IMG/VR virus record: IMGVR_UViG_3300021598_001639
DNA: 20,000 bases
DNA from: an uncultured virus (IMG/VR IMGVR_UViG_3300021598_001639)
Lineage: Duplodnaviria > Heunggongvirae > Uroviricota > Caudoviricetes
Strand: one strand, 5' to 3'
Part shown: positions 1 to 19,620 of the stretch, in pieces
Numbering within the stretch: position 1 is the first letter of the stretch
Layout of the letters: each line of letters starts with the position of its first letter
The notes under the pieces: generated by a model
What the model was told of the DNA's origin: nothing
The model's database searches: none
Seen by the model: the letters and a program-made list of their open reading frames with translations, nothing else
Made by a program: the position numbers and the translations under genes

Positions 1-445
1 AGTAAGCATCCCAACCTTTAGGAACGCCTAAAAGAGCAATATCCTGAAATTCAGTAGGAACATTTACATCAACAAGAATACGAATACCTGCTTCAGCCCA
101 ATAACGAGAAAGCCAACGTTTTTTAAAAATTAGTTCAATAGCGATAGCTTTAGGAGTTTGAAGAGTAATGGTGTAGTTAACTTCACCAACAAGAGTGATT
201 GAAGTATCGATTAATTTAGAAGGATTTTTCCAATGACCATTAAAGCGATAATCGTCGGTATAGTGAAAGACAGTACCGGTAAGTGATTTGTTGCGAGCCT
301 TAGCCCCCCAAATATTAATAGGAGTTTCTGGCCATTTACCCGCCATATTCAAAGGAAGGACAGGGATGCCCCATTCATTGTCAGTGGGAAACATCCAAGT
401 TACAATATTATTACCTATGGGATTTAACAATTCTTTGATAGCCAT
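1..445 (-). CDS. DUF4417-like phage protein, 3'-truncated by the window edge (not in the ORF track)
   Basis: My translation from ATG at 445 is open to the edge: MAIKELLNPIG...NEWGIP...FHYTDDYRFNGHWKNP...KKRWLSRYWAEAGIRILVDV. The TDDYRF..W.NP and RW..YW...GI.I pattern resembles DUF4417. Confidence 0.65.
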   Translation of the reverse strand, partial: MAIKELLNPIGNNIVTWMFPTDNEWGIPVLPLNMAGKWPETPINIWGAKARNKSLTGTVFHYTDDYRFNGHWKNPSKLIDTSITLVGEVNYTITLQTPKAIAIELIFKKRWLSRYWAEAGIRILVDVNVPTEFQDIALLGVPKGWDAY

Positions 446-498
446 GAAAAAAGATTTCACTCAAAGTAAAGATATATCTTAGCATAAGGAAAAAAGAA

Positions 499-963
499 AT
501 GTCAAATAACGAACAACAAATTCCCACATTTGCGGAATATCTATTCAAGCCCCAGAGAAGTGCAAAGTTACTATATGGTACATTTGTACTAAGAGATAAA
601 GACCAAAAACAATTATGTGCGGTAGTGGCTACATCTGGGGCGGCAGGGTATCAAAATTGGACAGATTTTCAAAGGATAGGAAAGGGATTGATTCCGCCCT
701 ATGACAAATTTCAAATCAGAACCGATGGGTATCGATTAGCAACAAAAGGAATCGAAGGTATGTTTTATCCGATAGAACCTAGTCCTGTCCCTATCTATGG
801 AAGGTCTGAATTAGGGTTGCATTTTGACGCAAACGTACCTGGTTCAGCCGGATGTATTGTGATAGAAAACAAAAACAGTTTTTTAAAAACAATAGTCCCT
901 TTAATGTTAAAAGCGAAAAATGCAAAAATACTTAGAATCCCGTTAAAAGTCAATTTTAGCTAA
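499..963 (+). CDS. L,D-transpeptidase-fold (YkuD/Tlde1-like) protein, putative peptidoglycan-active enzyme
   Basis: ATSG...GLIPP...GRSELGLHFDANVPGSAGCI, with the His...GSxGC catalytic signature of the YkuD/Tlde1 fold. Confidence 0.7.
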   Translation: MSNNEQQIPTFAEYLFKPQRSAKLLYGTFVLRDKDQKQLCAVVATSGAAGYQNWTDFQRIGKGLIPPYDKFQIRTDGYRLATKGIEGMFYPIEPSPVPIYGRSELGLHFDANVPGSAGCIVIENKNSFLKTIVPLMLKAKNAKILRIPLKVNFS

Positions 964-1410
964 TGAGAAACTAAAAAGGTTTTGTAATTCATTATCAGAA
1001 AAACACCGACCTTTAAGCCAAGTCTCAAAAGTTAAGGGGGAATACTGAGGATTACGCTCGCTTAATAGATGAGGAAGTTTTGATTTAAAATCTAGAAATA
1101 AATCAAATTCTTCATCATTTAAACAAGATTTATTACAGGTTAGAGGGTGCAAAAAAAGGAAACCACTGGGTAAAACAAAACGAAACTGAGGCTTAATAAG
1201 CAAGGTCATAACTGCTGAAGAACTAATAGCCTTAATTACAATTAAAGGGGTGTGACAAATTTCAGCGATATGGATAGCTGAAAGAATGTCTCCCCCTTTA
1301 GAATTTACAAAAATCCTATTTACATTTAATTTTTGTAATGCGATAAAATAGGGAATTGTGTCGTGGTTAATAACGGAAATAGATGGCTTAAAATCAGGTA
1401 ATAATTCCAT
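943..1410 (-). CDS. ClpP/crotonase-like serine protease, divergent
   Basis: IFVNSKGGDILSAIHI (compare INSPGGxV), ISSSA (candidate catalytic Ser), and RF...FLFLHP (candidate catalytic His). Confidence 0.6.
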   Translation of the reverse strand: MELLPDFKPSISVINHDTIPYFIALQKLNVNRIFVNSKGGDILSAIHIAEICHTPLIVIKAISSSAVMTLLIKPQFRFVLPSGFLFLHPLTCNKSCLNDEEFDLFLDFKSKLPHLLSERNPQYSPLTFETWLKGRCFSDNELQNLFSFSLAKIDF

Positions 1411-1420
1411 AGATTATAAA

Positions 1421-2053
1421 ATGTTTAACTTCTTAAAACGGGTAGTAACAAAAAGATTATTAATTTATGCGGTAAATATAAGCGTGAATATTTTAGTGAT
1501 TTATTTTCAAATTTGGGGACAAGAGAAAATAGATACAAAAGAAAAAGTAATTCTTCAAAAATACGTAAAAACAAAAGATAACATTACAGTTACAAAGGAT
1601 ACAGAAAATTTAGTTTATTTATTAGATGGGTACATAACCAAAAGTACAACTTTAAAAATGCCGAAAGGAATAGGATTAAATAAAGAGAACAAAGAAATAC
1701 TGTTAGAAAATATTATAACATACGTTTCTACAAAGTATCCAGAGTCAACAATTTTAAAATCAAATAATTACGAAATATTAGTGGATTTAGGTTATACTAA
1801 AAGGCAAATAAATTTTTTAGGGTGGGAAAAAGTGAGAATGGTTTTATTTGTAGCGGGAAGTAAAGATGATTATAAACTTTATTTAATAGCAACCGTTAAA
1901 ATAGCTTCAGGAAACCCTTTTTTACCCCCTCCAAGCAAAGAATTTACCCAATTAGAAGGTGAATCCGCCCACAATGTTAAGGAGTATTTAGAAAGGTTTT
2001 TAGCAGATTTAGGAAAAGCAATAAGTGAACCCAAAACAGACACTAGAGATTAA
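1421..2053 (+). CDS. hypothetical protein with N-terminal hydrophobic anchor
   Basis: Long ORF. ATG at 1421 avoids overlap with the ClpP-like gene. Hydrophobic segment LLIYAVNISVNILVIYFQIW. Confidence 0.6.
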   Translation: MFNFLKRVVTKRLLIYAVNISVNILVIYFQIWGQEKIDTKEKVILQKYVKTKDNITVTKDTENLVYLLDGYITKSTTLKMPKGIGLNKENKEILLENIITYVSTKYPESTILKSNNYEILVDLGYTKRQINFLGWEKVRMVLFVAGSKDDYKLYLIATVKIASGNPFLPPPSKEFTQLEGESAHNVKEYLERFLADLGKAISEPKTDTRD

Positions 2054-2447
2054 GCAAAAATTAGGAAAAGAATACTTTATAGCCATAGGTTTTATATTTT
2101 GGACTACAACTTTGGTGAGAGTAATAGGGGGTTTAACAGACGAGCAATTTCAATATACATTGTTGCTATTATTATCATCTGTGACAAATTTTAGCATACC
2201 TATTTTGAAATATTTTATAAGAGGAGAAGCCAAAAAACCAACAATTAAGTTTACATTAGAGGGAAGCAGTATAGTGTTAGGAGTGGCGAGAGTTTACGGA
2301 ATAGCAATAAGTTTAACCAATCTGTTAAGAGTATTACCTATTCCCACGTTAAGCGTATTTTCCACATATTTTACTATAATGAGTAGCATACAAGCAATAT
2401 TTAGTGTTTGGCTGTCATGGATTTTAACTGAAGTTTTTGAAGATTAG
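2025..2447 (+). CDS. hypothetical integral membrane protein (about 4 TM segments)
   Basis: 140 aa with four hydrophobic stretches, overlapping the upstream gene in operon fashion. Confidence 0.6.
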   Translation: MNPKQTLEIKQKLGKEYFIAIGFIFWTTTLVRVIGGLTDEQFQYTLLLLLSSVTNFSIPILKYFIRGEAKKPTIKFTLEGSSIVLGVARVYGIAISLTNLLRVLPIPTLSVFSTYFTIMSSIQAIFSVWLSWILTEVFED

Positions 2448-2659
2448 AAATTCTTGACAAAAAACTCACCAGCAAGTGTTATCATAAAAAGTTCAAGGTC
2501 ACGACCAACAGCAACTTTTTTGATTAAGCCTAAATTTAAAAGAGGTTGGAAATCAGGGTCATAAGGTTTTGTCCAAATTGTTTTATGATTTGCGATATAT
2601 TTTAAAAGGTTTATATTGATAGTAGTGCTAGTTTTTTTCAAGACATTCTTTTTATTCAT
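2444..2659 (-). CDS. small hypothetical protein, possibly winged-helix-like
   Basis: 71 aa ORF. The LLNLGLI...FMITLAG pattern is reminiscent of wHTH C-termini. Confidence 0.45.
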   Translation of the reverse strand: MNKKNVLKKTSTTININLLKYIANHKTIWTKPYDPDFQPLLNLGLIKKVAVGRDLELFMITLAGEFFVKNF

Positions 2660-2790
2660 AAAAAGGAAATGATTTTTTGTAAAGGTGGGTCAAAGATACC
2701 AATAGTTAGAGTATCAATGACACCACGAAAAAGAGCTAAGACAATTTTGATTTTGAGCGAGAACCTTCAGAATTAAGGAAATCTGGCGTA

Positions 2791-3645
2791 CTAATATTTC
2801 AAAAGGGAACCTTTAGTCACCTCAAGAATCTCTTGAATGGTAGTGACTCGCCCTAAAGAAAGACCTAAAGGTTGAGAAGGAGTGATAGCGTGCTGGTCGG
2901 GGGACTTACGAATAGTGAAGTCAATATCGACACCTGAGAACCAAGCAACAGAAGCTGGTAAATCATAAAGTCCAACAGAATAAGAGATATAAGCCCTAGT
3001 CCAAAGGTGAGCTATTTGCAAAGCTAAACAAAAACGAGCAGAATCTTTAGCAAGAACAATGTACCGGTATTCATCATGAATAGTGATACAAAGTCGAGCA
3101 TCAATGTCGTATTTGGAACAAAGATAATCAACAGCAGTAAGACAGATGTGTAAAAAATCAACACCGGAGCTTTGAACACAAAAATTAATTTTGCTAGTTA
3201 GATAATCTTTGTGACCAGTAAAACGGGGATGAATGGCATCACTCATAGTACGTTTTAAGGTAGGAGTGCGAGGGTCACTAGAAGTAGCAATACGTTCAAG
3301 TTCGTTAAACATAACGGACTCAGTACCTAAACGCCAACGTCCTTCAATTTTTTTACCTTTTGTTTTGGCAAACATATCAGAAGCAAGCTGTTTAGCCTCA
3401 GCAGAAGTCAAAGTTTTACGGAACTCCCGCATATAATTAATCATCGATTTAAGACCAGCAGAATATCGACGGCTATAGACGACAGTTTTAGCATTATCAC
3501 GACTGATACCTAATAAAGAAGCAGTCATAGAATGAGGGTCAGTGCCATCTTCTTTACAGCCAACAAGTGTTTGAAAAGAGGAAGGCGTACCACCAATAAT
3601 GCCAACATGAGCATCAGCTATAAGGTCAGAAATCCATAACTCTTG
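2791..3645 (-). CDS. polA: DNA polymerase gamma-like family A polymerase, exon 2 (rest of motif A, motifs B and C)
   Basis: Begins QELWISDLIADAH (Pol gamma QELWIAAVLGDAH). Contains GTDPHSMTA, SRDNAKTVVYSRRYSAG (motif B), NFCVQSSGVDFLH and CITIHDEYRY (motif C). The listed start at 3684 lies inside the intron. Confidence 0.93.
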   Translation of the reverse strand, partial: QELWISDLIADAHVGIIGGTPSSFQTLVGCKEDGTDPHSMTASLLGISRDNAKTVVYSRRYSAGLKSMINYMREFRKTLTSAEAKQLASDMFAKTKGKKIEGRWRLGTESVMFNELERIATSSDPRTPTLKRTMSDAIHPRFTGHKDYLTSKINFCVQSSGVDFLHICLTAVDYLCSKYDIDARLCITIHDEYRYIVLAKDSARFCLALQIAHLWTRAYISYSVGLYDLPASVAWFSGVDIDFTIRKSPDQHAITPSQPLGLSLGRVTTIQEILEVTKGSLLKY

Positions 3646-4539
3646 CAAGTTTCTTACGAATAGCCCGCTTCCGACTATTCTCACTGAGTCTCCCCAGTGT
3701 TGAGACTATATCATATACGGTTTCCCGTATCTCCCCGTTTCGAGCTTGCTTAAGCCCTACGATAATAAGCCTAGTTCTTTCAAGATACCCTTATATGCTT
3801 TACCCTTCTTGATGTTAGCCACATGGGACTTCTGTACTCCATGCTCTTTAGCTAATTGTTCATCTGGTAAGTCAGAATTGAAGATTTTTACAATATCTTC
3901 TGTGGTTAACTTGAATCTAGACGTTTCTCTAGTCGTTGAAGAGTCCTGTACAATCCTTCCCACTGTGGTTCTGTTCATGCCCACCATCTCCGCTATTTTT
4001 CGGGTGGTGTAACCCTGTACCCATAGTTCCATTACTTCTTCCCGGTGAATATCTCTGAAGTCCGAGTGTTGGTTTTTTCTACCTTGGGGGCGTTTGTCGC
4101 CCTTTAGCCGATAGTCTTCAGAGATATTGTGGGAAATTGTACACCATTCAAGATTTTCAAGATTGTTATTGGTCTTGCAATCGTCTTTGTGGTGGACTAC
4201 GGGGAGATTGTCTGGGTTGGGTAGATGGGCTAGGGCTACCATACGGTGAACCATGATGTTTTTAGTTTCCCCTGAGTCATTTGTTAGGACAGTTGCCATA
4301 TATCCACTTTTATTGACTGCTGGTGACATAAAACGCTTGACTCGGTGGGAGTAGATACGACCCGTTTTAGTAACGCTGTACTTACTAAATCCGGGGATTG
4401 TAACTAGGCTTTCCCGCTGATTGTCCATAACCTTTATCTTTTTAAACGCTATCCCAATTGTATCCTAAAGGGATTGTGGTGTAAAGGCTTAACTGGAGTT
4501 TCCAGCAATTAGAGGAGTTTAACGACAGCCATTGTGTTA
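3646..4539 (-). ncRNA. group I self-splicing intron (IA-type), 894 nt, in polymerase motif A
   Basis: Exon 1 ends in U and the intron ends in G; removal joins GADVDS and QELWI in frame. P1 GACAGU/GCUGUC with U-G at the splice site. P element AAUUGCUGGAAA, Q element AAUCAGCGG, R element UUCAACGACUA (3930-3940), P3 CUCCUC/GGGGAG, P8 AUACGG-GAAA-CCGUAU, S element AUGAUAUAGUCU, P9 CACUGGG-GAGA-CUCAGUG. Confidence 0.93.
3757..4428 (-). CDS. intron-encoded NUMOD4-HNH homing endonuclease (I-HmuI-like) with C-terminal HTH modules
   Basis: IPGFSKYSVTKTGRIYS (NUMOD4), VHRMVA...VVHHKDDCKTNNNLENLEWCTISHN (HNH), YTTRKIAEMVGMNRTTVGRIV (HTH). Confidence 0.92.
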   Translation of the reverse strand: MDNQRESLVTIPGFSKYSVTKTGRIYSHRVKRFMSPAVNKSGYMATVLTNDSGETKNIMVHRMVALAHLPNPDNLPVVHHKDDCKTNNNLENLEWCTISHNISEDYRLKGDKRPQGRKNQHSDFRDIHREEVMELWVQGYTTRKIAEMVGMNRTTVGRIVQDSSTTRETSRFKLTTEDIVKIFNSDLPDEQLAKEHGVQKSHVANIKKGKAYKGILKELGLLS

Positions 4540-6363
4540 ACTGTCCACGTCAGCACCAATTTGAACATAGCCTTGTGGCATACGAACAGTGGTTTTAATT
4601 TCACTTCCAATGCGATTAGCCCGGGGGTTAGCCGCAGTAAGCCAAGTGTTTTCAACAGCACGACCAGTGACAGTACCGGCAGTAATTAATTGAGGACAAA
4701 TAAAACCAGTTCGATTGTCAGAAGACAGAACAACAAATTGATTTTTTACTCGGTCTTGAACAGAAACCCAATAAGCGCAAGAAATAGCAGATTGGAGGGC
4801 TAATTTAGCTTCAGGGAAGTCAGAATCAAGAATACCTCCTTCCATTTCAGACAGATAATCTTTAGACAAAGGCGAACCAACATTGGAATTTTCACCGGCT
4901 TTGTGAGGTAGGGGATAATACAGAGTATCGACATAAGAAAGACCACCATCGTGAGAGATAAAGTTTTCAAGAAGCAAAGGTGTGGTATTGGAAGAAACAT
5001 CAGCACCCTGAGTGGCAAGAAAACCCCACTTACGATCCTTATGATGATAAAGAGGGAAACCCATCCAAGAGAGACGTAAAAGATAGGGGGTACATTGGGA
5101 ACGAACAGTAAGGTTCAGTTTATCACCCTTGAATAGCTTACGATACCATTCTGGTTTGTCTTTATGTTTTTTAGCCCGTGAAGAAGGCATAGACCAATCT
5201 AAATGACGAAGCCAAGCATCAGAGTTAGGGTCTAATTCACCGCTAATAAACTTAGAAACTGCATCATCAGCCAACATTTGCAAGTGGGAATTAATTTTTA
5301 AGCGTTCGGACTGAAACAACTCTTCACACCGATTGATATAGCCATACCAACTTTCACGGGTAACAGGAAGGATAGCAGTACCCATTTGCAACATTCCGCA
5401 AAAAGTCACAGCAGAAGGGCATTTTTCCTTAAAGCGGAACCATAAAACTTGATAAAGTTGAAAAGTGACTTTAACATCATTAGCACAGTATTGAGCTAAT
5501 TGCTGAAAACGATTTTTTATTTCCAAAAGAGTACCGGTAACAAAATAATCACGGTCGGATTTGGAAATAGAATAACCTAAATGCAATCTTGAAGTTTCGG
5601 CTAAAGAATTACCGCTAGAAACCTCAAGCCAATCAAAATAAAAAGGAGACTCACCTTGCTCATCAAGAGCTTTATTATGTTTGATGCTAAGAGGACGTTG
5701 TTTTGAACTTAGACCAGCGACGCATTGGTGCATAGACAAAGTATCCCAAAAACGAACGCCTGAGAGTTTGAGGTCATAAGTTTCTAAGGTTCTTGCACGG
5801 TCATAACTGGCATAATGAGCAACAACAAATTTGTCGGATTTACCCAAAGGACAAAGAGTATCAGAACCGTTTGAAACCAGTTTAGGGGAAACCCAAAAAT
5901 ACCAAGCGACAGAAGAAACAGCACAAGCCATGACAGGGTAATTAGAGCTAGTAACAGCAACCTCACAGTCATAAACAATGGACATCTCAAGAGGGTAAGG
6001 GACAGAATAGGGTTCCGACCCATCCATAGGGTAACAAGTCCAACCGCACTTGAAAATAAATTCAGAAGGAATAGGTGGAATACTGGTACGAGCTAAAGCC
6101 TCCGCTAAATCTAAATAAGGTTTAGAACGCTGAATAGCAATGTTGTGAAAATGTTTTTCAAGGTCTTCACCTTCAAGAGGGGGTAAATCAAATTCAATAG
6201 TAGGAGGAGTAGGAATGTTCGAGCCACTCAGATTGAAGCTCTGTAACTGTCTTTTGGCTTCGTCACGAGCAGTTTTGCTTGGGTGGTTTTCTAAATCCCC
6301 AAATAATTGCTCCCTTAAGGATTCAGAAATCAAAGGAATCCCTACAGCATTTTTTCTAGACAT
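4540..6363 (-). CDS. polA: DNA polymerase gamma-like family A polymerase, exon 1 (3'-5' exonuclease, spacer, start of motif A)
   Basis: Exo I VYDCEV, Exo II VAHYASYDRAR, FWDTLSMH, Exo III QYCANDV, LPHKAGENSNVGSP, TAGTVTGRAVENTWLTA, GADVDS. All are collinear with mitochondrial Pol gamma motifs. Confidence 0.93.
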
Positions 6364-6395
6364 ACACGGTTTTATTTTAAGTGGTTTACATTTTA

Positions 6396-6424
6396 AGTAT
6401 CGTACAAAGTTAATCTTTTGTCAA
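6396..6424 (-). promoter_or_regulatory. putative sigma70-type promoter of the polymerase gene
   Basis: TTGACA-N17-GATACT about 30 nt upstream of the ATG at 6363. The -10 element is imperfect. Confidence 0.4.
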
Positions 6425-6535
6425 GGTTGAAATATTGACAGGGGATGGAATAATCACACAGCAAGGATTGAGCGGGGAGGGGAAAAACAAAAAAACATTG
6501 ACAATGGTTGTAGTCCTTAATAAATTAATAATCAT

Positions 6536-7289
6536 ACTTGGTGCTAACTTAGAATTTCTCTGGTTAGAGAATCGCTTTTGTCGATGCGCTCGCAGGGGAA
6601 AAGGAAACTTACGGTTAATTCGTCTCCCTCGTCTTCCTCGTCGCATTAAACGACTACTATCCATCCGTTTTTCAACTCGTTTAAAGGGAAGCTCTAGGTG
6701 AGCCGTCTACAGAGTAAAACCAGAAGATGGGACATTAATTCCAGAAAACAATTTGCTGGGGTCAATTCCTACAGAAATAGGTTGAGTTTTATTTTCTTGA
6801 TCATCTTGCTTTGTAGAATCAGGTGTAAGAGGAAATTGAGGATTAAATCGATGAACAAATCACTGTTATCCTAAAACAAAATCCCCTTGACACCGTGTTT
6901 GTAACTCATTGTTAATGAGATCAATCTGTTTGCTTCCCACTGCGATTTTGACCACTCCTCAATGTTTTAGCAGGTCTAGAACGTCCAACATCACTATGAA
7001 TAGAATCTTGTAAAGCATCAATTAATATCTCCGGTGGTAAAGGCCTACGAAGCTCACTTTCCTCCTCAGACAAGGGTGTTAATTGCGGTCTTTGGGGTGG
7101 ATTACCACGCCCAAGATTCTCTATTACTTTATCATTGTCAGAAGGTTCTGCTATCAGTTGGACATAGAATTGTCCTAAGTCGTTGAATTTACCGATGGCT
7201 TTTCCTTCTTTAATCCACCGTCTAGCCCGACTAGGTTTAGTCGGCATTAGAGGTCGATTGTCTGAAGAGATTACAGGTATTCTTTGCAT
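6536..7289 (-). pseudogene. isrB: IsrB/IscB (RRXRR/PLMP, IS200/IS605 OMEGA nuclease) remnant: interrupted, nonsense-mutated and truncated
   Basis: MQRIPV...RPLMPTKPSRARR...LGQFYVQL (PLMP domain), then a ~340-bp insert. Resumes KTQPISVGIDP (RuvC-I), has an in-frame TAG at 6707-6709, then the bridge helix MRRGRRGRR...RFSN...KLAPS. Homology stops there, with no RuvC-II/III. The N-terminal style resembles IsrB more than IscB. Confidence 0.82.
6921..7289 (-). CDS. PLMP/RRXRR domain fused in frame to a 70-aa Pro-rich tail
   Basis: Intact 122-aa ORF. The first ~52 aa are the IsrB/IscB N-terminus and the rest comes from the insert. Confidence 0.45.
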   Translation of the reverse strand: MQRIPVISSDNRPLMPTKPSRARRWIKEGKAIGKFNDLGQFYVQLIAEPSDNDKVIENLGRGNPPQRPQLTPLSEEESELRRPLPPEILIDALQDSIHSDVGRSRPAKTLRSGQNRSGKQTD

Positions 7290-7294
7290 GGAGA

Positions 7295-7533
7295 TAATCC
7301 TTAAGAGTGAAGTTAATGTCCTTTACCGCAACACAATCAAGATGTCTTGTCTAACAACGCTTTACCAATAAAGCTTAGAGATAGTCCGAACGAGGGAAGG
7401 ATTCGTAAGTCTGGGACAGATTGTGTCTCAATGCGGTAGTCGCTACTTGCGTTGCTTAAATTGGTCTAGGCAAGCCCCGCACCTTTAGGACGGGGTTAGT
7501 AACATAATGAGCAACAACAAATTTGTTGGATTT
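7295..7533 (-). ncRNA. omegaRNA (HEARO-like) scaffold at about 7295-7503 with 5' guide segment 7504-7533
   Basis: About 210 non-coding nt directly upstream of the PLMP ORF, starting GTTACTAACCCCGTCCTAAAGGTGCGGGGCTTG, the typical 5' hairpin of IscB/IsrB elements. A further hairpin CGAA...TTCG follows. The 3' boundary is approximate. Confidence 0.8.
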
Positions 7534-7609
7534 TATTGAGGAAAAAGGTTAAGAAGCAACGACAGCACTACAATTAATAGTAATGGTTTGAGCGACAGGG
7601 TGAAGTCGT

Positions 7610-8107
7610 TTAGACACTGCCAGTGAAGTGTTTTCTAGTTCGAGCGTGTAAATAATTTTCTGGACGGTTAGTGACTTTAGCCATTTCTACATTAGCTTTA
7701 AAATCTTTAACTTTCTTAATATAGGAATCAATAGTTTGTCGTTGATGCACGTCACCCAGACCTTTAAATTTTGGTCTATTAAGATACCAAGTTTGATATT
7801 CGATTAGGACATCAATTAAGGGTGAAAAGACAATGCAATAAGGTTGAATAGAGGTCAAAATGTCGATAGCTAATTGACCTTTGATAATCCATTTTTTGTT
7901 ACGATTGGGAGGTTTTGCGATATAAACAGTTCCCCCTAACATTTGACTAACTAGATGCAAATAATTAATATTTTTGTGATGAAATTCGATGGCAGGGGTA
8001 ACAAAGTTTTTATGACGCATTAAGCTAATAGAGGCTTTGGCTTCAATCATACCAGCGACATAAGCAGTTTCGAGGGGAGATAGCGTGTGAATCAGACTGT
8101 TGGACAT
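7610..8107 (-). CDS. free-standing single-motif LAGLIDADG-family protein, degenerate
   Basis: AYVAGMIEAKASISL aligns to AYLAGLIDGDGSI. The downstream LGGTV...W...A..IL..IQPY pattern is typical of LAGLIDADG endonucleases. Confidence 0.7.
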   Translation of the reverse strand: MSNSLIHTLSPLETAYVAGMIEAKASISLMRHKNFVTPAIEFHHKNINYLHLVSQMLGGTVYIAKPPNRNKKWIIKGQLAIDILTSIQPYCIVFSPLIDVLIEYQTWYLNRPKFKGLGDVHQRQTIDSYIKKVKDFKANVEMAKVTNRPENYLHARTRKHFTGSV

Positions 8108-8165
8108 AATAAATTTTGGTACAAATTGGTAGAGGGACTATGTGAAAGAATTAGAAATACCGAAA

Positions 8166-8795
8166 TCATTCAGCTAAAGCATTAATTATGGAGCCATAAT
8201 TATCCTCAATGAAAGACAGCAAATTTAAATCATTATCTAGGGTATCGTCATCCACGTCATTTGGTGAATTTTTATCCCATTCCCAAGCGTAAAGGATAGC
8301 ATTGTGAAGAATAAATTTGGAAAGCAGAGGTAAACGAGAAAGACGAAAAGCTTGAATATAATCAAAGTATTGCTGTTCACGAATAAGCATAAAACTTAAA
8401 AACCAAGCATGATAATTATGGCTTAGGTATTCGAGACAAGATTCAGGAGAATCGAAAAGATGTTCAAAAGGGTATTTTTTTCCTTGTTCTTCAGGGGGCA
8501 AAAATTCATACCAATCTTGAATGGACTCTAGAGGGTAACATTTGTTACGCCAAACAAAATACTCGTCTATTAAAGAAGGAAAAAGGTCTTTAACAGCTTC
8601 AAGAGTGTAAAGGTTTAGAGTCATTTTGTACTTTAAAGGAACTTTAGAAACCTGTAAGGTTTTCAAATAGGTAGAAAATTGTCTATTAGAGATAAGCGTA
8701 ACTAAAGAACTAACGGTTTCAGCTTCTGTATGGTTCATAGGGGAGGACTCCAAATTGATTAGTTTAATCATAGCACGGTTGACGGAAATGGTCAA
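8166..8795 (-). CDS. hypothetical protein
   Basis: 209-aa ORF with an acidic C-terminus. The true start may be the internal ATG (MIKLINL). Confidence 0.6.
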   Translation of the reverse strand: MTISVNRAMIKLINLESSPMNHTEAETVSSLVTLISNRQFSTYLKTLQVSKVPLKYKMTLNLYTLEAVKDLFPSLIDEYFVWRNKCYPLESIQDWYEFLPPEEQGKKYPFEHLFDSPESCLEYLSHNYHAWFLSFMLIREQQYFDYIQAFRLSRLPLLSKFILHNAILYAWEWDKNSPNDVDDDTLDNDLNLLSFIEDNYGSIINALAE

Positions 8796-8826
8796 GAAAA
8801 ACCCACCTATATTACGGGTGGGTTTT
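8793..8826 (-). terminator. rho-independent terminator after the helicase gene
   Basis: AAAACCCACC-N9-GGTGGGTTTT stem running into TTTTTCTT on the minus strand, just after the helicase stop at 8832. Confidence 0.7.
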
Positions 8827-8831
8827 AAAAA

Positions 8832-10291
8832 TTATTCTTTGATGAAAACTTTTTGTTTAGCTCGTGTGAGAGCTACATAAAGCAATTTTTTCCAATTAGG
8901 GGCGTTATATACATCAAGACCATCGATAAAGACAACATCAAAACCAGACCCTTGACTTTTATAGACAGTCAAAGCATAATTATATGCCCAATGATACGTC
9001 AAAAAGCTTAAGTTTTGCCATTCTTTATAGGCAGAATATAGAGCTTTACAATTGGATTGTAGCTTAGAACTGACAGAATAAAGAGCGTCAGGGTAGGCTC
9101 GTTCAAGATAAGTTAAAGCTTCTTGAGCAATTGCCAAAATAGAGGGGTCTGGAACTATAGGAATTACGCCAGAGATTAAACCATCGATACAATAAAGAAT
9201 GGCTGTTAAATCCTTCAATTCTTCTTGCAAAGTTATAGAACGATTCATGACCTGAATCATTTTATCGTTATTGCGAGGGTCAATAAAAGAAACCGTCCAT
9301 TGTAAATCTCTGTCTAAAGATTTAACAGTAGTATCCCAAACATCAACAGTAAAGTTGGACATTTTGTGAAAATTAAGAGTAAATTCCACTAACTCTTCAG
9401 CGTCAAAAATGTCGATTTCTTTCTCTTTAAAGGGGTCACAAAGTTTGCAAGTTGAAAAATGGGAACTAAGGATGGACACGATTTCACCATTAACAAAATT
9501 GGCAACTTTATTAGCACGGTTAACATATTTAAAGTAGTTATTACGGCGTAAACTGATAAGTTGTTCGCCTTCAGCAAAGGGTTTATTAGCGATACCTTTT
9601 ATTGAACGAATAAGTTCGTTATATTGACAAACTTTATCGTTTTTATGAGCTAATATTTTGAACTCAATATTTTCTGAAGCTACAGTATTTTTTAGCTTTT
9701 CATACCATTCATTAGCAGAAATAAGTTCAACATTGTGCAAATCAGGGTCTAAACATTACTAGCTTTTTGACCGGGTGGGGGTAGTTGACAAGAATCACCA
9801 ACCCAAAGAATTTTAGCTTTGATTTGGGACGCTTTTTCCCTTAAACGACACTCCATATCCTTAGAAAGAATAGAAACTTCATCAACGATAATCAACTGGT
9901 ATTGGCTAGTGACAAATTTAGAGTTACCGGTATCTAAAGTAGATTTTTCAGAGTCTCTGGTAACTCGGACACCTTTCATTTTGTACTGCCCACCTTTTTC
10001 TTGAATTACAAGTCCTAAAATGGCATGAATAGTATAAACATCTGCGTTAAATGTCAACTTTTCTTTAAGGACAGAAGCCGCTTTATTGGTAGGACATAAA
10101 ATAGCAATTTTTAGGTTAGGGTGTGACTGTATCCAATGAGCAATTAAAGTGGTTTTACCAGTACCAGCCCCCCCAGAAATTAAATGTTCCCCCTTTTTTG
10201 AACCCCACCAACGTTCTAAATCTTCGAGAGCTAACCTTTGGTCTTCTGTTAATTGAAGGGGTGTGGTTTCGATAGCTACAGACGATGACAT
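8832..10291 (-). pseudogene. Dda/RecD2-like SF1B DNA helicase split into two ORFs (9749-10291 and 8832-9740) by a frameshift
   Basis: ORF1 has Walker A GGAGTGKTT, Walker B IIVDEVS and motif III GDSCQLPP. ORF2 has YALTVYKSQGS and LYVALTRAK. The frames differ by 1 nt at AATGTTTAGAC. Confidence 0.82.
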
Positions 10292-10341
10292 AGCGACAAA
10301 CTCCTTGTTGAATGTTAAAAAGCGAATTTTGATTGAAACTC

Positions 10342-10489
10342 GGTTGTGGTTTCGATATTGACATACTCACCGTCCTTAAAGAGTGGTGATTCTTGACGCT
10401 TCACCGACTGACGCTACCGAGGTAGTCTTACTCTGTCTCTGCGCCCGTTTAGAGTCTCCCAATGCCCTATGGCGACTTTCTTGTTTGGA
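10342..10489 (-). ncRNA. orphan IS200/IS605 right end / TnpB omegaRNA (reRNA) scaffold at about 10358-10489, with 3' guide segment 10357-10342
   Basis: Minus strand reads ...GAAGCGTCAAGAATCACC-ACTCTTTAAGGAC-GGTGAGTATGTCAA, a subterminal hairpin ending in TCAA as in IS605-family right ends. The 5' part encodes a TnpB-like tail (KKVAIGHWETLNGRR). No tnpB or tnpA gene is present. Confidence 0.72.
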
Positions 10490-10975
10490 TTATACCCAAT
10501 CTTTTTCGTTCCATATTTGTTTGTCAATAAAATCTGAGATAGACTTTACTATTTCGTCTGTTTTGTCAAGAATAAAATCAATCTCATCTTGCTTGTCGGA
10601 AATTTCAGATTCATCCCAAACAAGTGCCTCATCATAGCTTAATCCTATATATCTATATATTTCTTTTATTTCTCCGGTTCTTAGATCAAATATTCTACTA
10701 CTTACTTTAACTACTGGTAAATCATCAAAATCTCGGTAATAGCACATAACCTTAATATGCGCTATGGTCTGACTATCTAAAAGAACCTTAGCATTACCCA
10801 TTAGGTAAATTGTAGTCGCTGATGTTATTTTCCATTCTGACCAAAGAAGATATTTGAATAACCAATTATCCCAAAAAGACCATGTATTATACTCTTTGTA
10901 GCAAAAAGCCGCAATCTTTTTGAGTATATCTATTCTTCGTGGCTTATTAAAAAACTTTTCTGTTGTTGTGTTCAT
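10490..10975 (-). CDS. hypothetical protein, paralog family member 3 (more divergent)
   Basis: Shares KI..FC...Y..W and I..FI...I with the two upstream ORFs. ATGA start/stop overlap. Confidence 0.7.
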   Translation of the reverse strand: MNTTTEKFFNKPRRIDILKKIAAFCYKEYNTWSFWDNWLFKYLLWSEWKITSATTIYLMGNAKVLLDSQTIAHIKVMCYYRDFDDLPVVKVSSRIFDLRTGEIKEIYRYIGLSYDEALVWDESEISDKQDEIDFILDKTDEIVKSISDFIDKQIWNEKDWV

Positions 10976-11397
10976 AGCGTCACCTCGGTTTGTATTTCAG
11001 TTTCGATAAATGAAAGGATATTAATCAAGATTTGTGTTCCTTTTTCACACCATAAGTTTAGTTCTTTATGTTTAGCAGTCCCACTTTTCTTGAACAAGAT
11101 TTTACTGTTTTTTCTATCATTTATCCATATAAGAAAACTTCCTTCCCAATCTAGATTAGAGATAGTAGACCGACCTTCTATATAATTTCTAAAATCACTA
11201 GGTGAACCGTTACTACTATAAGAGTTGTTGCTATTGACCCTTATATCTATTTGTATTCCATTTATAGAATTAAGAATAGAGCGATACCCGTAAATGATGT
11301 TTTCAGTTCTACTTAAAGACGTAAATGACCACTTTAGCTCTGGGTAAGTTTTTTGGCAGAAATTAAATATTTTTTGGGTTGTTTCTGTAGTGTTCAT
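10972..11397 (-). CDS. hypothetical protein, paralog family member 2
   Basis: MNTTETTQKIFNFCQKTYPELKW...WEGSFLIW...FIETEIQTEVTL. Confidence 0.75.
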   Translation of the reverse strand: MNTTETTQKIFNFCQKTYPELKWSFTSLSRTENIIYGYRSILNSINGIQIDIRVNSNNSYSSNGSPSDFRNYIEGRSTISNLDWEGSFLIWINDRKNSKILFKKSGTAKHKELNLWCEKGTQILINILSFIETEIQTEVTL

Positions 11398-11774
11398 AAT
11401 GTCATCTCGGTTTGTATTTGAGTTTCGATAAACTCAAAAATACTTGACAGCATATCTTTGGGTTTTATAAATAAATCTGTTGACGTATCAAAATCTTTTT
11501 TTGATTTAAAAGAGAATTGAGATTCTTTTCTATCTAGCCAAATTTTGAAAGAACCAGACCATCGCTCTGAACTAGAGATAAACGTGCTTACTTCTCCTAA
11601 CACAACAGAACTTCTTAATAAAGTACCAATAGTCTCTATACTGACATCAATCTCTGTTATTTTACCCCAAATATGAAAAGTTGAATTTGTGTAATTTGTT
11701 TGTTCCCAATTTATTTCTGGGTAACGGTCTTTACAGAAATCTAATATTTTTTGGGATGTTTGCCATGTGTCCAT
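11394..11774 (-). CDS. hypothetical protein, paralog family member 1
   Basis: MDTWQTSQKILDFCKDRYPEINW...WSGSFKIW...FIETQIQTEMTL. AGGAG Shine-Dalgarno upstream. Confidence 0.75.
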   Translation of the reverse strand: MDTWQTSQKILDFCKDRYPEINWEQTNYTNSTFHIWGKITEIDVSIETIGTLLRSSVVLGEVSTFISSSERWSGSFKIWLDRKESQFSFKSKKDFDTSTDLFIKPKDMLSSIFEFIETQIQTEMTL

Positions 11775-11828
11775 TTGTTACTCCTATTTACTCTTGGATT
11801 TCACCAGACCAGATTGGTTCGTAAATTA

Positions 11829-11857
11829 ATTATATATTGGTTTGAGTAAAATGTCAA
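11829..11857 (-). promoter_or_regulatory. consensus sigma70 promoter
   Basis: Perfect TTGACA-N17-TATAAT, about 55 nt upstream of ATG 11774. Confidence 0.85.
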
Positions 11858-11922
11858 GAGGCATAATATCTTGGTACATAGTTTTAGGGCTGAGGGGGAT
11901 AGTTAAAGGCGAAATATTAGTG
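11833..11922. repeat. 90-bp direct repeat, copy A
   Basis: 80/90 identical and ungapped against 16796-16885 by manual alignment. Confidence 0.9.
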
Positions 11923-12394: not shown

Positions 12395-12969
12395 ACTTTA
12401 ATCTAATCACCTCGCCCTATATCGTGGTTAATTAAATGTGACATTATCTCAACTGTCACACCTCCTGAAAATAGATACGATAACCCTCAGTCTGTTTGCT
12501 TACCCCGTAATCCATCCACCGCCCCAGCAATCGGCTGAAACTGAAGCACCCCGAACCGTGTCACCGGCGCATTAGGGACGTGCCTATCAACGCACTCCAC
12601 CAACTTATACTTAAATAGAGCCAGTCTTTACAAAAGAAAAAACGGGCAAATAATAATGGCTTTTCGGATGACACCAATCTAACCCAAAAAGGCGATCGAT
12701 ATGCTGACCTCTATCGGCTACAAGGGAATAAGTTCATCAGAGAAGGCGAGAAAAAAGGAGCCTACTATCCAGTGATTAACCCAAACAGTAGCGACAATGC
12801 TCCCATCTGCTTTATCGGCTATTACGATTAATCCCCCAACCCTGAATAGTTTTGTCTTTCTAACCTGGTTATCTCTTTAAGTAGCTCGTTTCTTTCCTCA
12901 ATAAGTTTTTGGTTTTCGCTTAAAGCCTATCTATTTCAGCTTTTAACTTTTCCTTTTCTTTAAAATTAT

Positions 12970-19309: not shown

Positions 19310-19620
19310 CGTAAAATTAGGAGTTGTATTACGTTTTGCATCTAGAATTTATTTTAGCATGGTTGACGAAAAATTAACCTAGTGAGCTATCTAAAAAATG
19401 TACTACTTGGTCTGAAATAAATAAGATTTAATTATATCAGGGGTTTTAACGTTTTAGACTTAAAAAAAGTGCTATTTTAAAATCAATAAAACCCAATCAT
19501 AGTATGGCTTTGACCTGTTTGTACTATGTAGTAGGGGGGATAACTTTATTTTTTTTTTTTATCCCTTACCCCTTTAATCATCGCATTGGAGGGTTCCAAA
19601 TTTTAAACAATTCCTTTCTT

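Follow-up and report, generated by a model that had tools for sequence, protein, structure and literature searches.

Do phages turn OMEGA nucleases (obligate mobile element-guided activity), or guide RNAs alone, on rival phages? OMEGA nucleases keep their own transposon in place. A locus that bears on this question lies in what we call the window, the whole 20,000-nt stretch of DNA analysed here, which comes from an uncultured virus of the Caudoviricetes (IMG/VR record IMGVR_UViG_3300021598_001639). The first-pass annotation of this DNA had noticed, beside two replication genes, an omegaRNA of the IsrB/IscB type and the right end of a TnpB-type element, each carrying a copy of part of the neighbouring gene where its guide should lie, and had proposed RNA-guided homing or exclusion directed at related phages. 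We find that the parts are ordinary members of the IsrB/HEARO and TnpB right-end families, and that their arrangement appears to be new: a guide copies a neighbouring essential gene, and the target-adjacent motif (TAM) is present only in the allele of a sister phage. Full-text searches yielded no description of this arrangement, and neither they nor the accessible part of PMC13565253 pointed to a paper on a guide aimed at a neighbouring gene. The reading that we favour, at about even confidence, is that both features are flank scars of insertions into replication genes from which the phage was rescued by recombination. The two RNAs would then be decayed elements of the IS200/IS605 family, and their guides the DNA that flanked each element where it had inserted.

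The window belongs to a Mic1-like Microcystis siphophage: Mic1 is 92% identical to it across 57% of the window length, and IMG/VR record G001 (33 kb) is the same phage over positions 1-8945. The related loci that we compared comprise nine from metagenomes and three from IMG/VR. Among them, L017 is 95-96% identical to the window, whereas L012 and L016, which gave near-identical BLAST rows and probably represent one lineage, carry the sister allele discussed below. All genes and elements discussed lie on the minus strand.

The IsrB omegaRNA and its polymerase-derived guide

The IsrB element and the polymerase site matched by its guide consist of the following features, in gene sense.

7528..7533, minus strand: AAATCC, the microhomology at the outer junction; native intergenic bases, also present in the polymerase gene
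7504..7527, minus strand: polymerase-derived stub of 24 nt at the guide position of the omegaRNA, AACAAATTTGTTGTTGCTCATTAT, with one mismatch to 5812-5835
7290..7503, minus strand: scaffold of an IsrB-type omegaRNA; G7503 is the first base of the element, GTTACTAACCCC
6536..7289, minus strand: decayed isrB, with a PLMP/RRXRR N-terminus, a foreign insertion of 344 nt (7135-6792) and frameshifted RuvC-I/RRXRR pieces
6532..6535, minus strand: ATGA, the family TAM at the right side of the element, native to the intergenic site; L017 reads tttttgATGAttattaa
5812..5835, minus strand: matching site in the exonuclease domain of the polymerase gamma-like gene, codons 177-184 (Pfam DNApol_Exo, 4.8e-80)
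5808..5811, minus strand: GCCA in the TAM position (codon 185 = GCC), where L012 and L016 have ATGA

The scaffold is homologous to the omegaRNAs of the IS200/IS605 IsrB family. Its 214 nt align with eight copies from hosts or phages, with column identity averaging 95%, 54 of the 56 predicted consensus pairs are kept (two are broken), and about 12 of the 214 positions are unique with respect to the host consensus. Rfam returned no match at its gathering threshold for either the window or the Ma-LMM01 omegaRNA. The HEARO model gives the window scaffold 23.1 bits (E 0.37), below the gathering score of 83, yet this low score is not a sign of decay: the Ma-LMM01 copy, which is intact, fares no better and does not reach E 1. 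The boundaries of the family are sharp: the start GTCACTAACC follows unrelated flanks in all 16 host loci (Microcystis, Crocosphaera) and in Ma-LMM01, and 17/17 other IsrB copies begin at GTCAC. At the opposite end, four copies with different right flanks all close with TTTTTTCG followed by ATGA, which identifies ATGA as the family TAM; the window carries this motif at the end opposite the omegaRNA. According to the accessible part of PMC11237433, a host IsrB element (207 bp upstream, 59 bp downstream) entered Mic1 gp49 at ATGA in culture, and DtIsrB, as far as the accessible part of PMC9581776 describes it, works with a guide of 20 nt and the TAM NTGA, its nick falling on the non-target strand. 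The Microcystis and Ma-LMM01 IsrB elements (HEARO; PMC11237433, accessible part) thus resemble ours in scaffold family, GTCAC/GTTAC start, right-side ATGA and a guide taken from the 5' flank. They differ in that here isrB is destroyed, the right end is gone and the 5' flank consists of 24 nt of the polymerase gene.

The RRXRR/PLMP pieces downstream of the omegaRNA lie in two frames (Pfam). BLAST of the isrB remnant against host elements covers only insertion sequence (IS) positions 1-369 and 368-621; the element is truncated after position ~621 of ~1380, with the last ~760 nt gone. An intact IsrB open reading frame (ORF), with PLMP domain, split RuvC and TAM-interacting domain, is therefore absent. 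Pfam searches of the 29 window ORFs gave only RRXRR fragments and no OrfB/TNB domain, in agreement with the first-pass annotation, which had seen no intact nuclease and had correctly assigned the omegaRNA (7503-7290) that precedes these pieces. The 33-kb record G001 contains neither tnpB nor isrB, and no intact isrB was found in G001, G019 or Mic1. A DNA contig skips the 344-nt insertion (joint 6791-7136). The first 218 nt of this insertion are common to an IsrB remnant upstream of the L012 helicase (88.5%), and in the DNA runs the insertion is joined to other sequence at both ends and is deeper than the phage, so it may represent a separate small mobile element.

The guide position does not hold the native flank. 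The match between 7503-7533 and 5811-5841 is 30/31, as first noticed. Its first G belongs to the element and its last 6 nt, AAATCC, are native intergenic DNA, and because the comparison with L017 identifies these bases as native, 24 nt are imported. At the AAATCC junction L017, which has no element, reads ...caataaaatcc/ataatttttgatga, and the polymerase gene reads ggtaaatcc/gacaaattt. The complete empty site of L017 runs ...caataaaatcc/ataatttttg/ATGA/ttattaaattattaagg, and the occupied site of the window ...caataaaatcc/aacaaatttgttgttgctcattat/element/ATGA/ttattaatttattaagg. Both phages thus carry the native intergenic ATGA, while the L017 flank ataatttttg is represented in the window by polymerase sequence; the 24-nt stub is absent from the empty sites of L017, Mic1 and L012. 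Contigs of two DNA runs bridge the junction of omegaRNA and flank with zero differences; run X1 may be the sample from which the window came. RNA contigs of very great depth cover 7175-7399, but they deviate at 3-5 letters in every 57 nt and belong to host copies, and contigs cannot show RNA ends. The polymerase site lies 1.7 kb downstream of the element and 528 nt inside the polymerase ORF. Such a second match is peculiar to this copy: the 16-nt guide finds one at 16/16 in the window, and 0/17 other IsrB copies do better than 12/16 (2.5-6.3 kb examined).

The other end of the stub coincides with an allelic difference. The polymerase alleles of the window, G001, Mic1 and L017 read CATTAT-GCCA-GTTATGAC, and those of L012 and L016 read CATTAT-ATGA-GTTATGAT, with 46 identical bases upstream. 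By sequence comparison, the guide matches the L012/L016 allele at 23/24 with ATGA directly 3'. The stub accordingly ends exactly at a canonical insertion and target site of the sister allele, which makes the guide the flank of a canonical insertion site there. The idea that the guides are not insertion-site flanks, advanced in the first-pass annotation, is not supported by this comparison, and the ATGA of L012/L016 likewise overturned a view of the polymerase site as TAM-less and hence never an insertion site. The omegaRNA with a compatible IsrB would be expected to address the L012-type polymerase allele and not its own. The locus therefore offers a concrete test pair for one guide, a sister allele with TAM and an own allele without; Mic1 and its host are in culture, where a host IsrB element was seen jumping into Mic1 (PMC11237433, accessible part).

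Fragments of the same family occur elsewhere. Just past the Mic1_87 stop, the Mic1 locus (12480-12494) has a lone GTCACTAACCCCGCC, the first 15 nt of the IsrB omegaRNA. The intergenic site ends in cattttcGATGG in Mic1 and in ttgttaGATGG in L012, both resembling the right end of the element; the whole spacer may be an ancient miniature remnant. Ma-LMM01 carries, at 3340-3450 of its locus and upstream of its intact omegaRNA, three extra partial copies of the omegaRNA 5' end (GTCRCTAACCC...), arranged head to tail 8-10 nt apart as a small array. Two Crocosphaera copies on one scaffold, L024 and L029, 32 kb apart, have at least 64 nt of 5' flank in common without a difference; the duplication covers the guide as well.

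The TnpB right end and the helicase stub

The second feature comprises the following parts.

10346..11920, minus strand: insert of 1.58 kb relative to L017-L022, containing a promoter cassette, ORF126, ORF141, ORF161, the right end and the stub
10358..10482, minus strand: remnant of a TnpB right end (right-end RNA scaffold), 125 nt, without a tnpB ORF; the ORF161 stop lies 8 nt upstream
10345..10357, minus strand: helicase-like stub of 13 nt directly after the right end, TATCGAAACCACA, matching 13/13
10262..10274, minus strand: matching site in helicase codons 6-10, preceded by GTAGC (10279-10275)
8832..10291, minus strand: superfamily 1 (SF1) helicase (Pfam), in two ORFs of 180 and 302 aa, with about 146 nt missing at 9751/9753

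Where tnpB genes are annotated on cyanobacterial plasmids, their 3' ends are 82-85% identical to this right end, and copies up to 90% identical occur in 46/401 cyanobacterial genomes. Its assignment to the TnpB type in the first pass is borne out also by its terminus: members of the family end in ...GTATGTCAA, stopping at GTCAA, and continue into unrelated flanks in 34/34 loci, and the window copy ends at this family terminus. Neither a tnpB ORF nor a left end precedes it; homology starts 8 nt past the stop of an unrelated ORF, and mapping of the left end by plasmid BLAST gave no further copies.

The 13-nt stub TATCGAAACCACA matches the helicase gene 17 nt into its ORF, 83 nt from the stub. 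A match of 13/13 has a chance expectation of 0.02, and 0/200 shuffles reach two matches. This seed match stands as originally reported. The reported extension to 15/16 holds only if the 16 nt are begun one base earlier; the 16 nt that follow 'gtcaat', ATCGAAACCACAACCG, match the helicase copy at 14/16. The empty site of L017 to L022, which do not have window 11920-10346, reads ...cctaaactgagtttcaatcaaaattcgc..., and a direct repeat of 12 nt, aac(t/c)gagtttca, borders the window's insert, as aactgagtttca (11932-11921) and aaccgagtttca (10345-10334). The insert begins with a promoter that agrees with the consensus at 12/12 positions (11857-11829), and no terminator precedes the helicase.

Twelve left ends of the TnpB family are flanked by NTGAC (8), TTATC (2), TTTTC (1) and TTGAT (1), a sample that replaced the TAM TTKAT inferred from two left ends by one that is mostly NTGAC. 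The match in the helicase alleles is preceded by GTAGC in six records, including the window, and by GTAAC in five; the GTAAC alleles are, in addition, mismatched to the guide at its position 4 or 10, so the best fit is to the allele that the phage itself carries. One may speculate that a synonymous GTA-to-GTG change would create a proper helicase target.

The split of the helicase probably reflects either a deletion present in few genomes or an error of the assembly. The ~146 nt are present in every relative, including L015, which is 99.8% identical and has a helicase that reads through, as well as in otherwise identical DNA contigs of runs X1 and X8; when they are restored, the window ORF reads through.

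Other tnpB elements sit at two further places in these phages. At window 18803/18804 all relatives have ~80 extra nt, and L012 and L016 have a 2-kb insert with a tnpB element (left end ...TTTAT/TATCGCAAAA, right end ...GGTGAGGATGTCAA) followed by tandem repeats of ~75 nt. The guide of this L012 element has second matches of only 14/16 and 13/16, near chance. The gp49 tnpB element of Mic1 (52577-53907) is absent from the orthologous site of G001 (30337-30391) and of G019; its loss reduced burst size from about 450 to about 2 (PMC11237433, accessible part). Directly after the right end of the gp49 element lies a dispersed repeat of ~160-200 nt (window 19390-19590; also in Mic1, G019 and G001) with at least 10 occurrences per Mic1-like genome, so the guide of the gp49 TnpB may lie in or beside a multi-copy phage repeat.

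Proposed insertion scars and competing explanations

How could two unrelated scaffolds have come to carry pieces of the genes next to them? The history that we favour would begin, for IsrB, with a canonical insertion at the intergenic ATGA, followed by a second canonical insertion into a polymerase allele of the ATGA type, at that ATGA, where the element would read CATTAT/GTCAC... on one side and ...TTTTTTCG/ATGAGTTATGA on the other. This second insertion would be lethal by itself. Homologous exchange between the two IsrB copies would yield a viable genome in which the stretch from the intergenic site to the polymerase is duplicated, and a deletion between the two AAATCC hexamers would then leave the 24-nt stub before the omegaRNA. 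The 344-nt insertion, the frameshifts and the 3' deletion would have broken isrB later. TnpB would have inserted near the helicase 5' end, after codon 5; an illegitimate crossover at accaca/aac would have restored an intact helicase downstream, and the left end and tnpB would have been lost subsequently.

Several features of the locus are consistent with this sequence of events. The foreign nucleotides, as defined by empty sites in relatives, amount to 24 before the omegaRNA and 13 after the right end, and each outer junction consists of microhomology: AAATCC for the polymerase, the 12-nt direct repeat with aca/aac for the helicase. L012 has this degenerate IsrB remnant as well, at another locus, upstream of the helicase and beside a left-end remnant of a Mic1 gp49-type element, which shows that such remnants are moved by recombination. 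The region is plainly prone to such movements; the tnpB insert of L012 at 18803/18804 and the 15-nt omegaRNA fragment of Mic1 are further instances. A reading of the neighbouring piece in L012 as another TnpB right end whose guide had been exchanged was rejected, the piece being this gp49-type left-end remnant (88% identity), with a native flank. We consider the remnants in the window most likely inert at present. The sequences themselves show the anatomy, the junctions, the TAMs and the alleles; the order of events and the lack of present activity are deduced from them. Rearrangement leftovers around inserted elements, the scenario that the first-pass annotation had named as its refutation, are thus the better-supported reading. 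It would mean that host insertion elements hit essential cyanophage replication genes, that recombination saves the phages and leaves guide-bearing scars, and that the TAM positions in replication genes vary among lineages.

Other observations weigh against this history. It requires several rare events, twice, within 3 kb, and it has to treat as coincidence that the IsrB remnant has its right junction no more than about 3 nt from the element terminus. Neither an insertion of IsrB in the polymerase nor one of TnpB in the helicase was found, with 0 junction matches in IMG/VR, where only three related records are present. The polymerase stub has 0 matches in 17 Microcystis genomes at up to 2 mismatches, and a search for the predicted intermediate with a native guide (...CCATAATTTTTG/GTCAC) returned only the same phage. 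No family TAM lies 5' of the helicase match in any of the 11 sampled alleles. The omegaRNA is better kept than the ORF, which has only 75-77% identity over IS positions 368-621, and both RNAs lie on the sense strand of transcribed operons with no terminator before either. An own allele without TAM beside a sister allele with TAM is the pattern expected of an active homing cassette.

We therefore weighed the possibility that the two features are active guide cassettes without nuclease, loaded in trans and serving RNA-guided 'intronless' homing or exclusion, which we regard as unlikely. A host IsrB, or the TnpB of a co-infecting phage, would load the phage RNA and nick the ATGA polymerase allele of a sister phage; the damaged rival would be out-replicated or repaired from the DNA of this phage, whose own GCCA allele would be immune, protected by a codon change that destroys the TAM. 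The TnpB/helicase cassette would be a second, older example. The 23/24 match with ATGA in L012/L016, set against the own GCCA, is what such a cassette should show. The well-kept pairing and low number of unique positions in the scaffold, the 16 host loci of the same IsrB family, the sense-strand position of the omegaRNA in a replication operon and the perfect consensus promoter upstream of the right end are also in its favour.

This explanation meets difficulties at both cassettes. The phage's own isrB is destroyed and tnpB is absent, and IsrB only nicks. No sampled helicase allele carries the family TAM, the best target of the helicase guide is the phage's own gene, and the rival alleles are mismatched at position 4 or 10. 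We found no relative with a diverged copy of either cassette, and only one clone-like lineage carries the cassettes. The first 49 nt of the omegaRNA are farther from the host consensus than those of the dead L012 remnant. Codon 185 (GCC versus ATG) is variable anyway: the alleles diverge by 4.4% overall, it belongs to the 3/609 codons in which every position differs, and the only outgroup, P0002 (63% identity), has Cys there. GCCA is found, too, in Mic1 and L017, which lack the cassette. The homing or exclusion role first proposed finds an unexpected fit in the sequence for the IsrB guide; for the helicase guide, with no family TAM in 11 alleles, it finds none. A cognate nuclease is present for neither.

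Comparison with known systems clarifies what an active cassette would amount to. Homing of transposons by TnpB and omegaRNA, restorative and non-restorative, has reportedly been described by Karvelis in 2021 and Meers in 2023. Stand-alone omegaRNAs, and palindrome-associated (PATE) or miniature inverted-repeat (MITE) transposable elements derived from IS200/IS605, are said to have been described by Altae-Tran in 2021; like our features they are guide scaffolds without a nuclease gene, possibly served in trans, but they keep both ends and a guide from the native flank, whereas here one end is lost and the flank copies a neighbouring gene. TnpB homing resembles the present case in that guide and TAM define a vacant site, which a sister phage carries with its TAM (PMC13565253, accessible part). 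It differs in that known homing is directed at the orthologous site when empty, which is recognized as such because the element is missing from it; in our case the target would lie inside a neighbouring gene, with self and rival distinguished by a TAM substitution. The closest layout is that of the free-standing homing endonucleases of T-even phages (SegF, SegB, Mob), known for intronless homing and marker exclusion, in which a cassette sits beside a conserved essential gene, the rival target lies in that gene, and substitutions make the own allele resistant; the accessible part of PMC13565253 likewise describes self and rival as distinguished by substitutions in the neighbouring gene. In those systems the cassette encodes a functional nuclease and flanking markers are inherited with a bias; here isrB is broken and tnpB absent, and an RNA would do the recognizing. 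A rival target is predicted from sequence for the polymerase guide, and none for the helicase guide among the 11 records. If active, the locus would represent an RNA-guided, nuclease-less version of free-standing homing or of marker exclusion.

Alternatively, the elements may never have been inside the genes. A break at the element terminus, the cleavage point of TnpA, would have been repaired with nearby downstream DNA, priming at AAATCC in the case of the 24 nt and copying 13 nt from 83 nt away in the other; in a variant, a junction of right end and left end would have undergone recombination with the helicase at TATCGAAA, the same 8 nt with which the left end of L040 begins. We judge this templated repair rather improbable in either form. 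The outer-junction microhomologies would suit it, the patches are short, direct and local, and no lethal intermediate is needed. On the helicase side, where the site has no family TAM, the stub opens with the same 8 nt as the left end of the related element L040, and helicase codons 3-6 agree with the final 10 nt of the right end at 6/10. Against it, the polymerase patch ends at the sister ATGA, which it leaves unexplained and which would be expected by chance about once in 256 per site. The left-end start TATCG is found in only 1/12 family flanks, that of L040; a separate IS of L012 also starts TATCG. The proposal that a TGGC within the polymerase gene served TnpA as a pseudo-end was rejected, as there is no hairpin beside TGGC.

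It is very improbable that a nuclease-dead effector uses these RNAs to regulate polymerase and helicase expression. The precedent is TldR, a phage-encoded, TnpB-derived RNA-guided repressor whose guide, as described in the accessible part of the source, likewise matches a gene other than its own flank, and the helicase match, 17 nt into the ORF, does lie near the start. TldR systems keep the effector gene and target TAM-adjacent promoters, neither of which holds here: the window has no effector gene of any kind, the phage's own sites are without TAMs, and the polymerase site, 528 nt inside the ORF, is away from a promoter. Chance similarity, for which nothing speaks except the AT-richness of the region, is practically negligible, as 0/200 shuffles reach the observed counts for either match (0 matches are expected for the polymerase 24-mer beside the scaffold) and both matches start at the exact element terminus.

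Gene context and neighbouring sequences

The gene-sense order of the region is an m5C (5-methylcytosine) methyltransferase (17884-16880), a 6.5-kb island, the SF1 helicase (10291-8832), two ORFs that belong to no family, an insert of 1 kb, the N-part of the polymerase gamma-like gene (6363-4537), a group I intron with an HNH gene, and the polymerase C-part. The 6.5-kb island and the 1-kb insert have no counterpart in Mic1.

The island between methyltransferase and helicase differs in every relative. Two gene modules of the island are each headed by a cassette of ~93 nt with a perfect TTGACA-17-TATAAT promoter (16885-16793 and 11922-11830; the two are 88% alike). ORF126, ORF141 and ORF161 (10490-11774) are mutual paralogues without a Pfam family, and about a dozen tandem members of their family occur in the 67-kb IMG/VR phage L059. 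The polymerase group I intron (3684-4537) contains an HNH/NUMOD4 homing endonuclease ORF at 4428-3757. Mic1 and L012 have the intron without this ORF, 138 nt replacing 735, and the L012 intron scores 71 bits with Rfam Intron_gpI.

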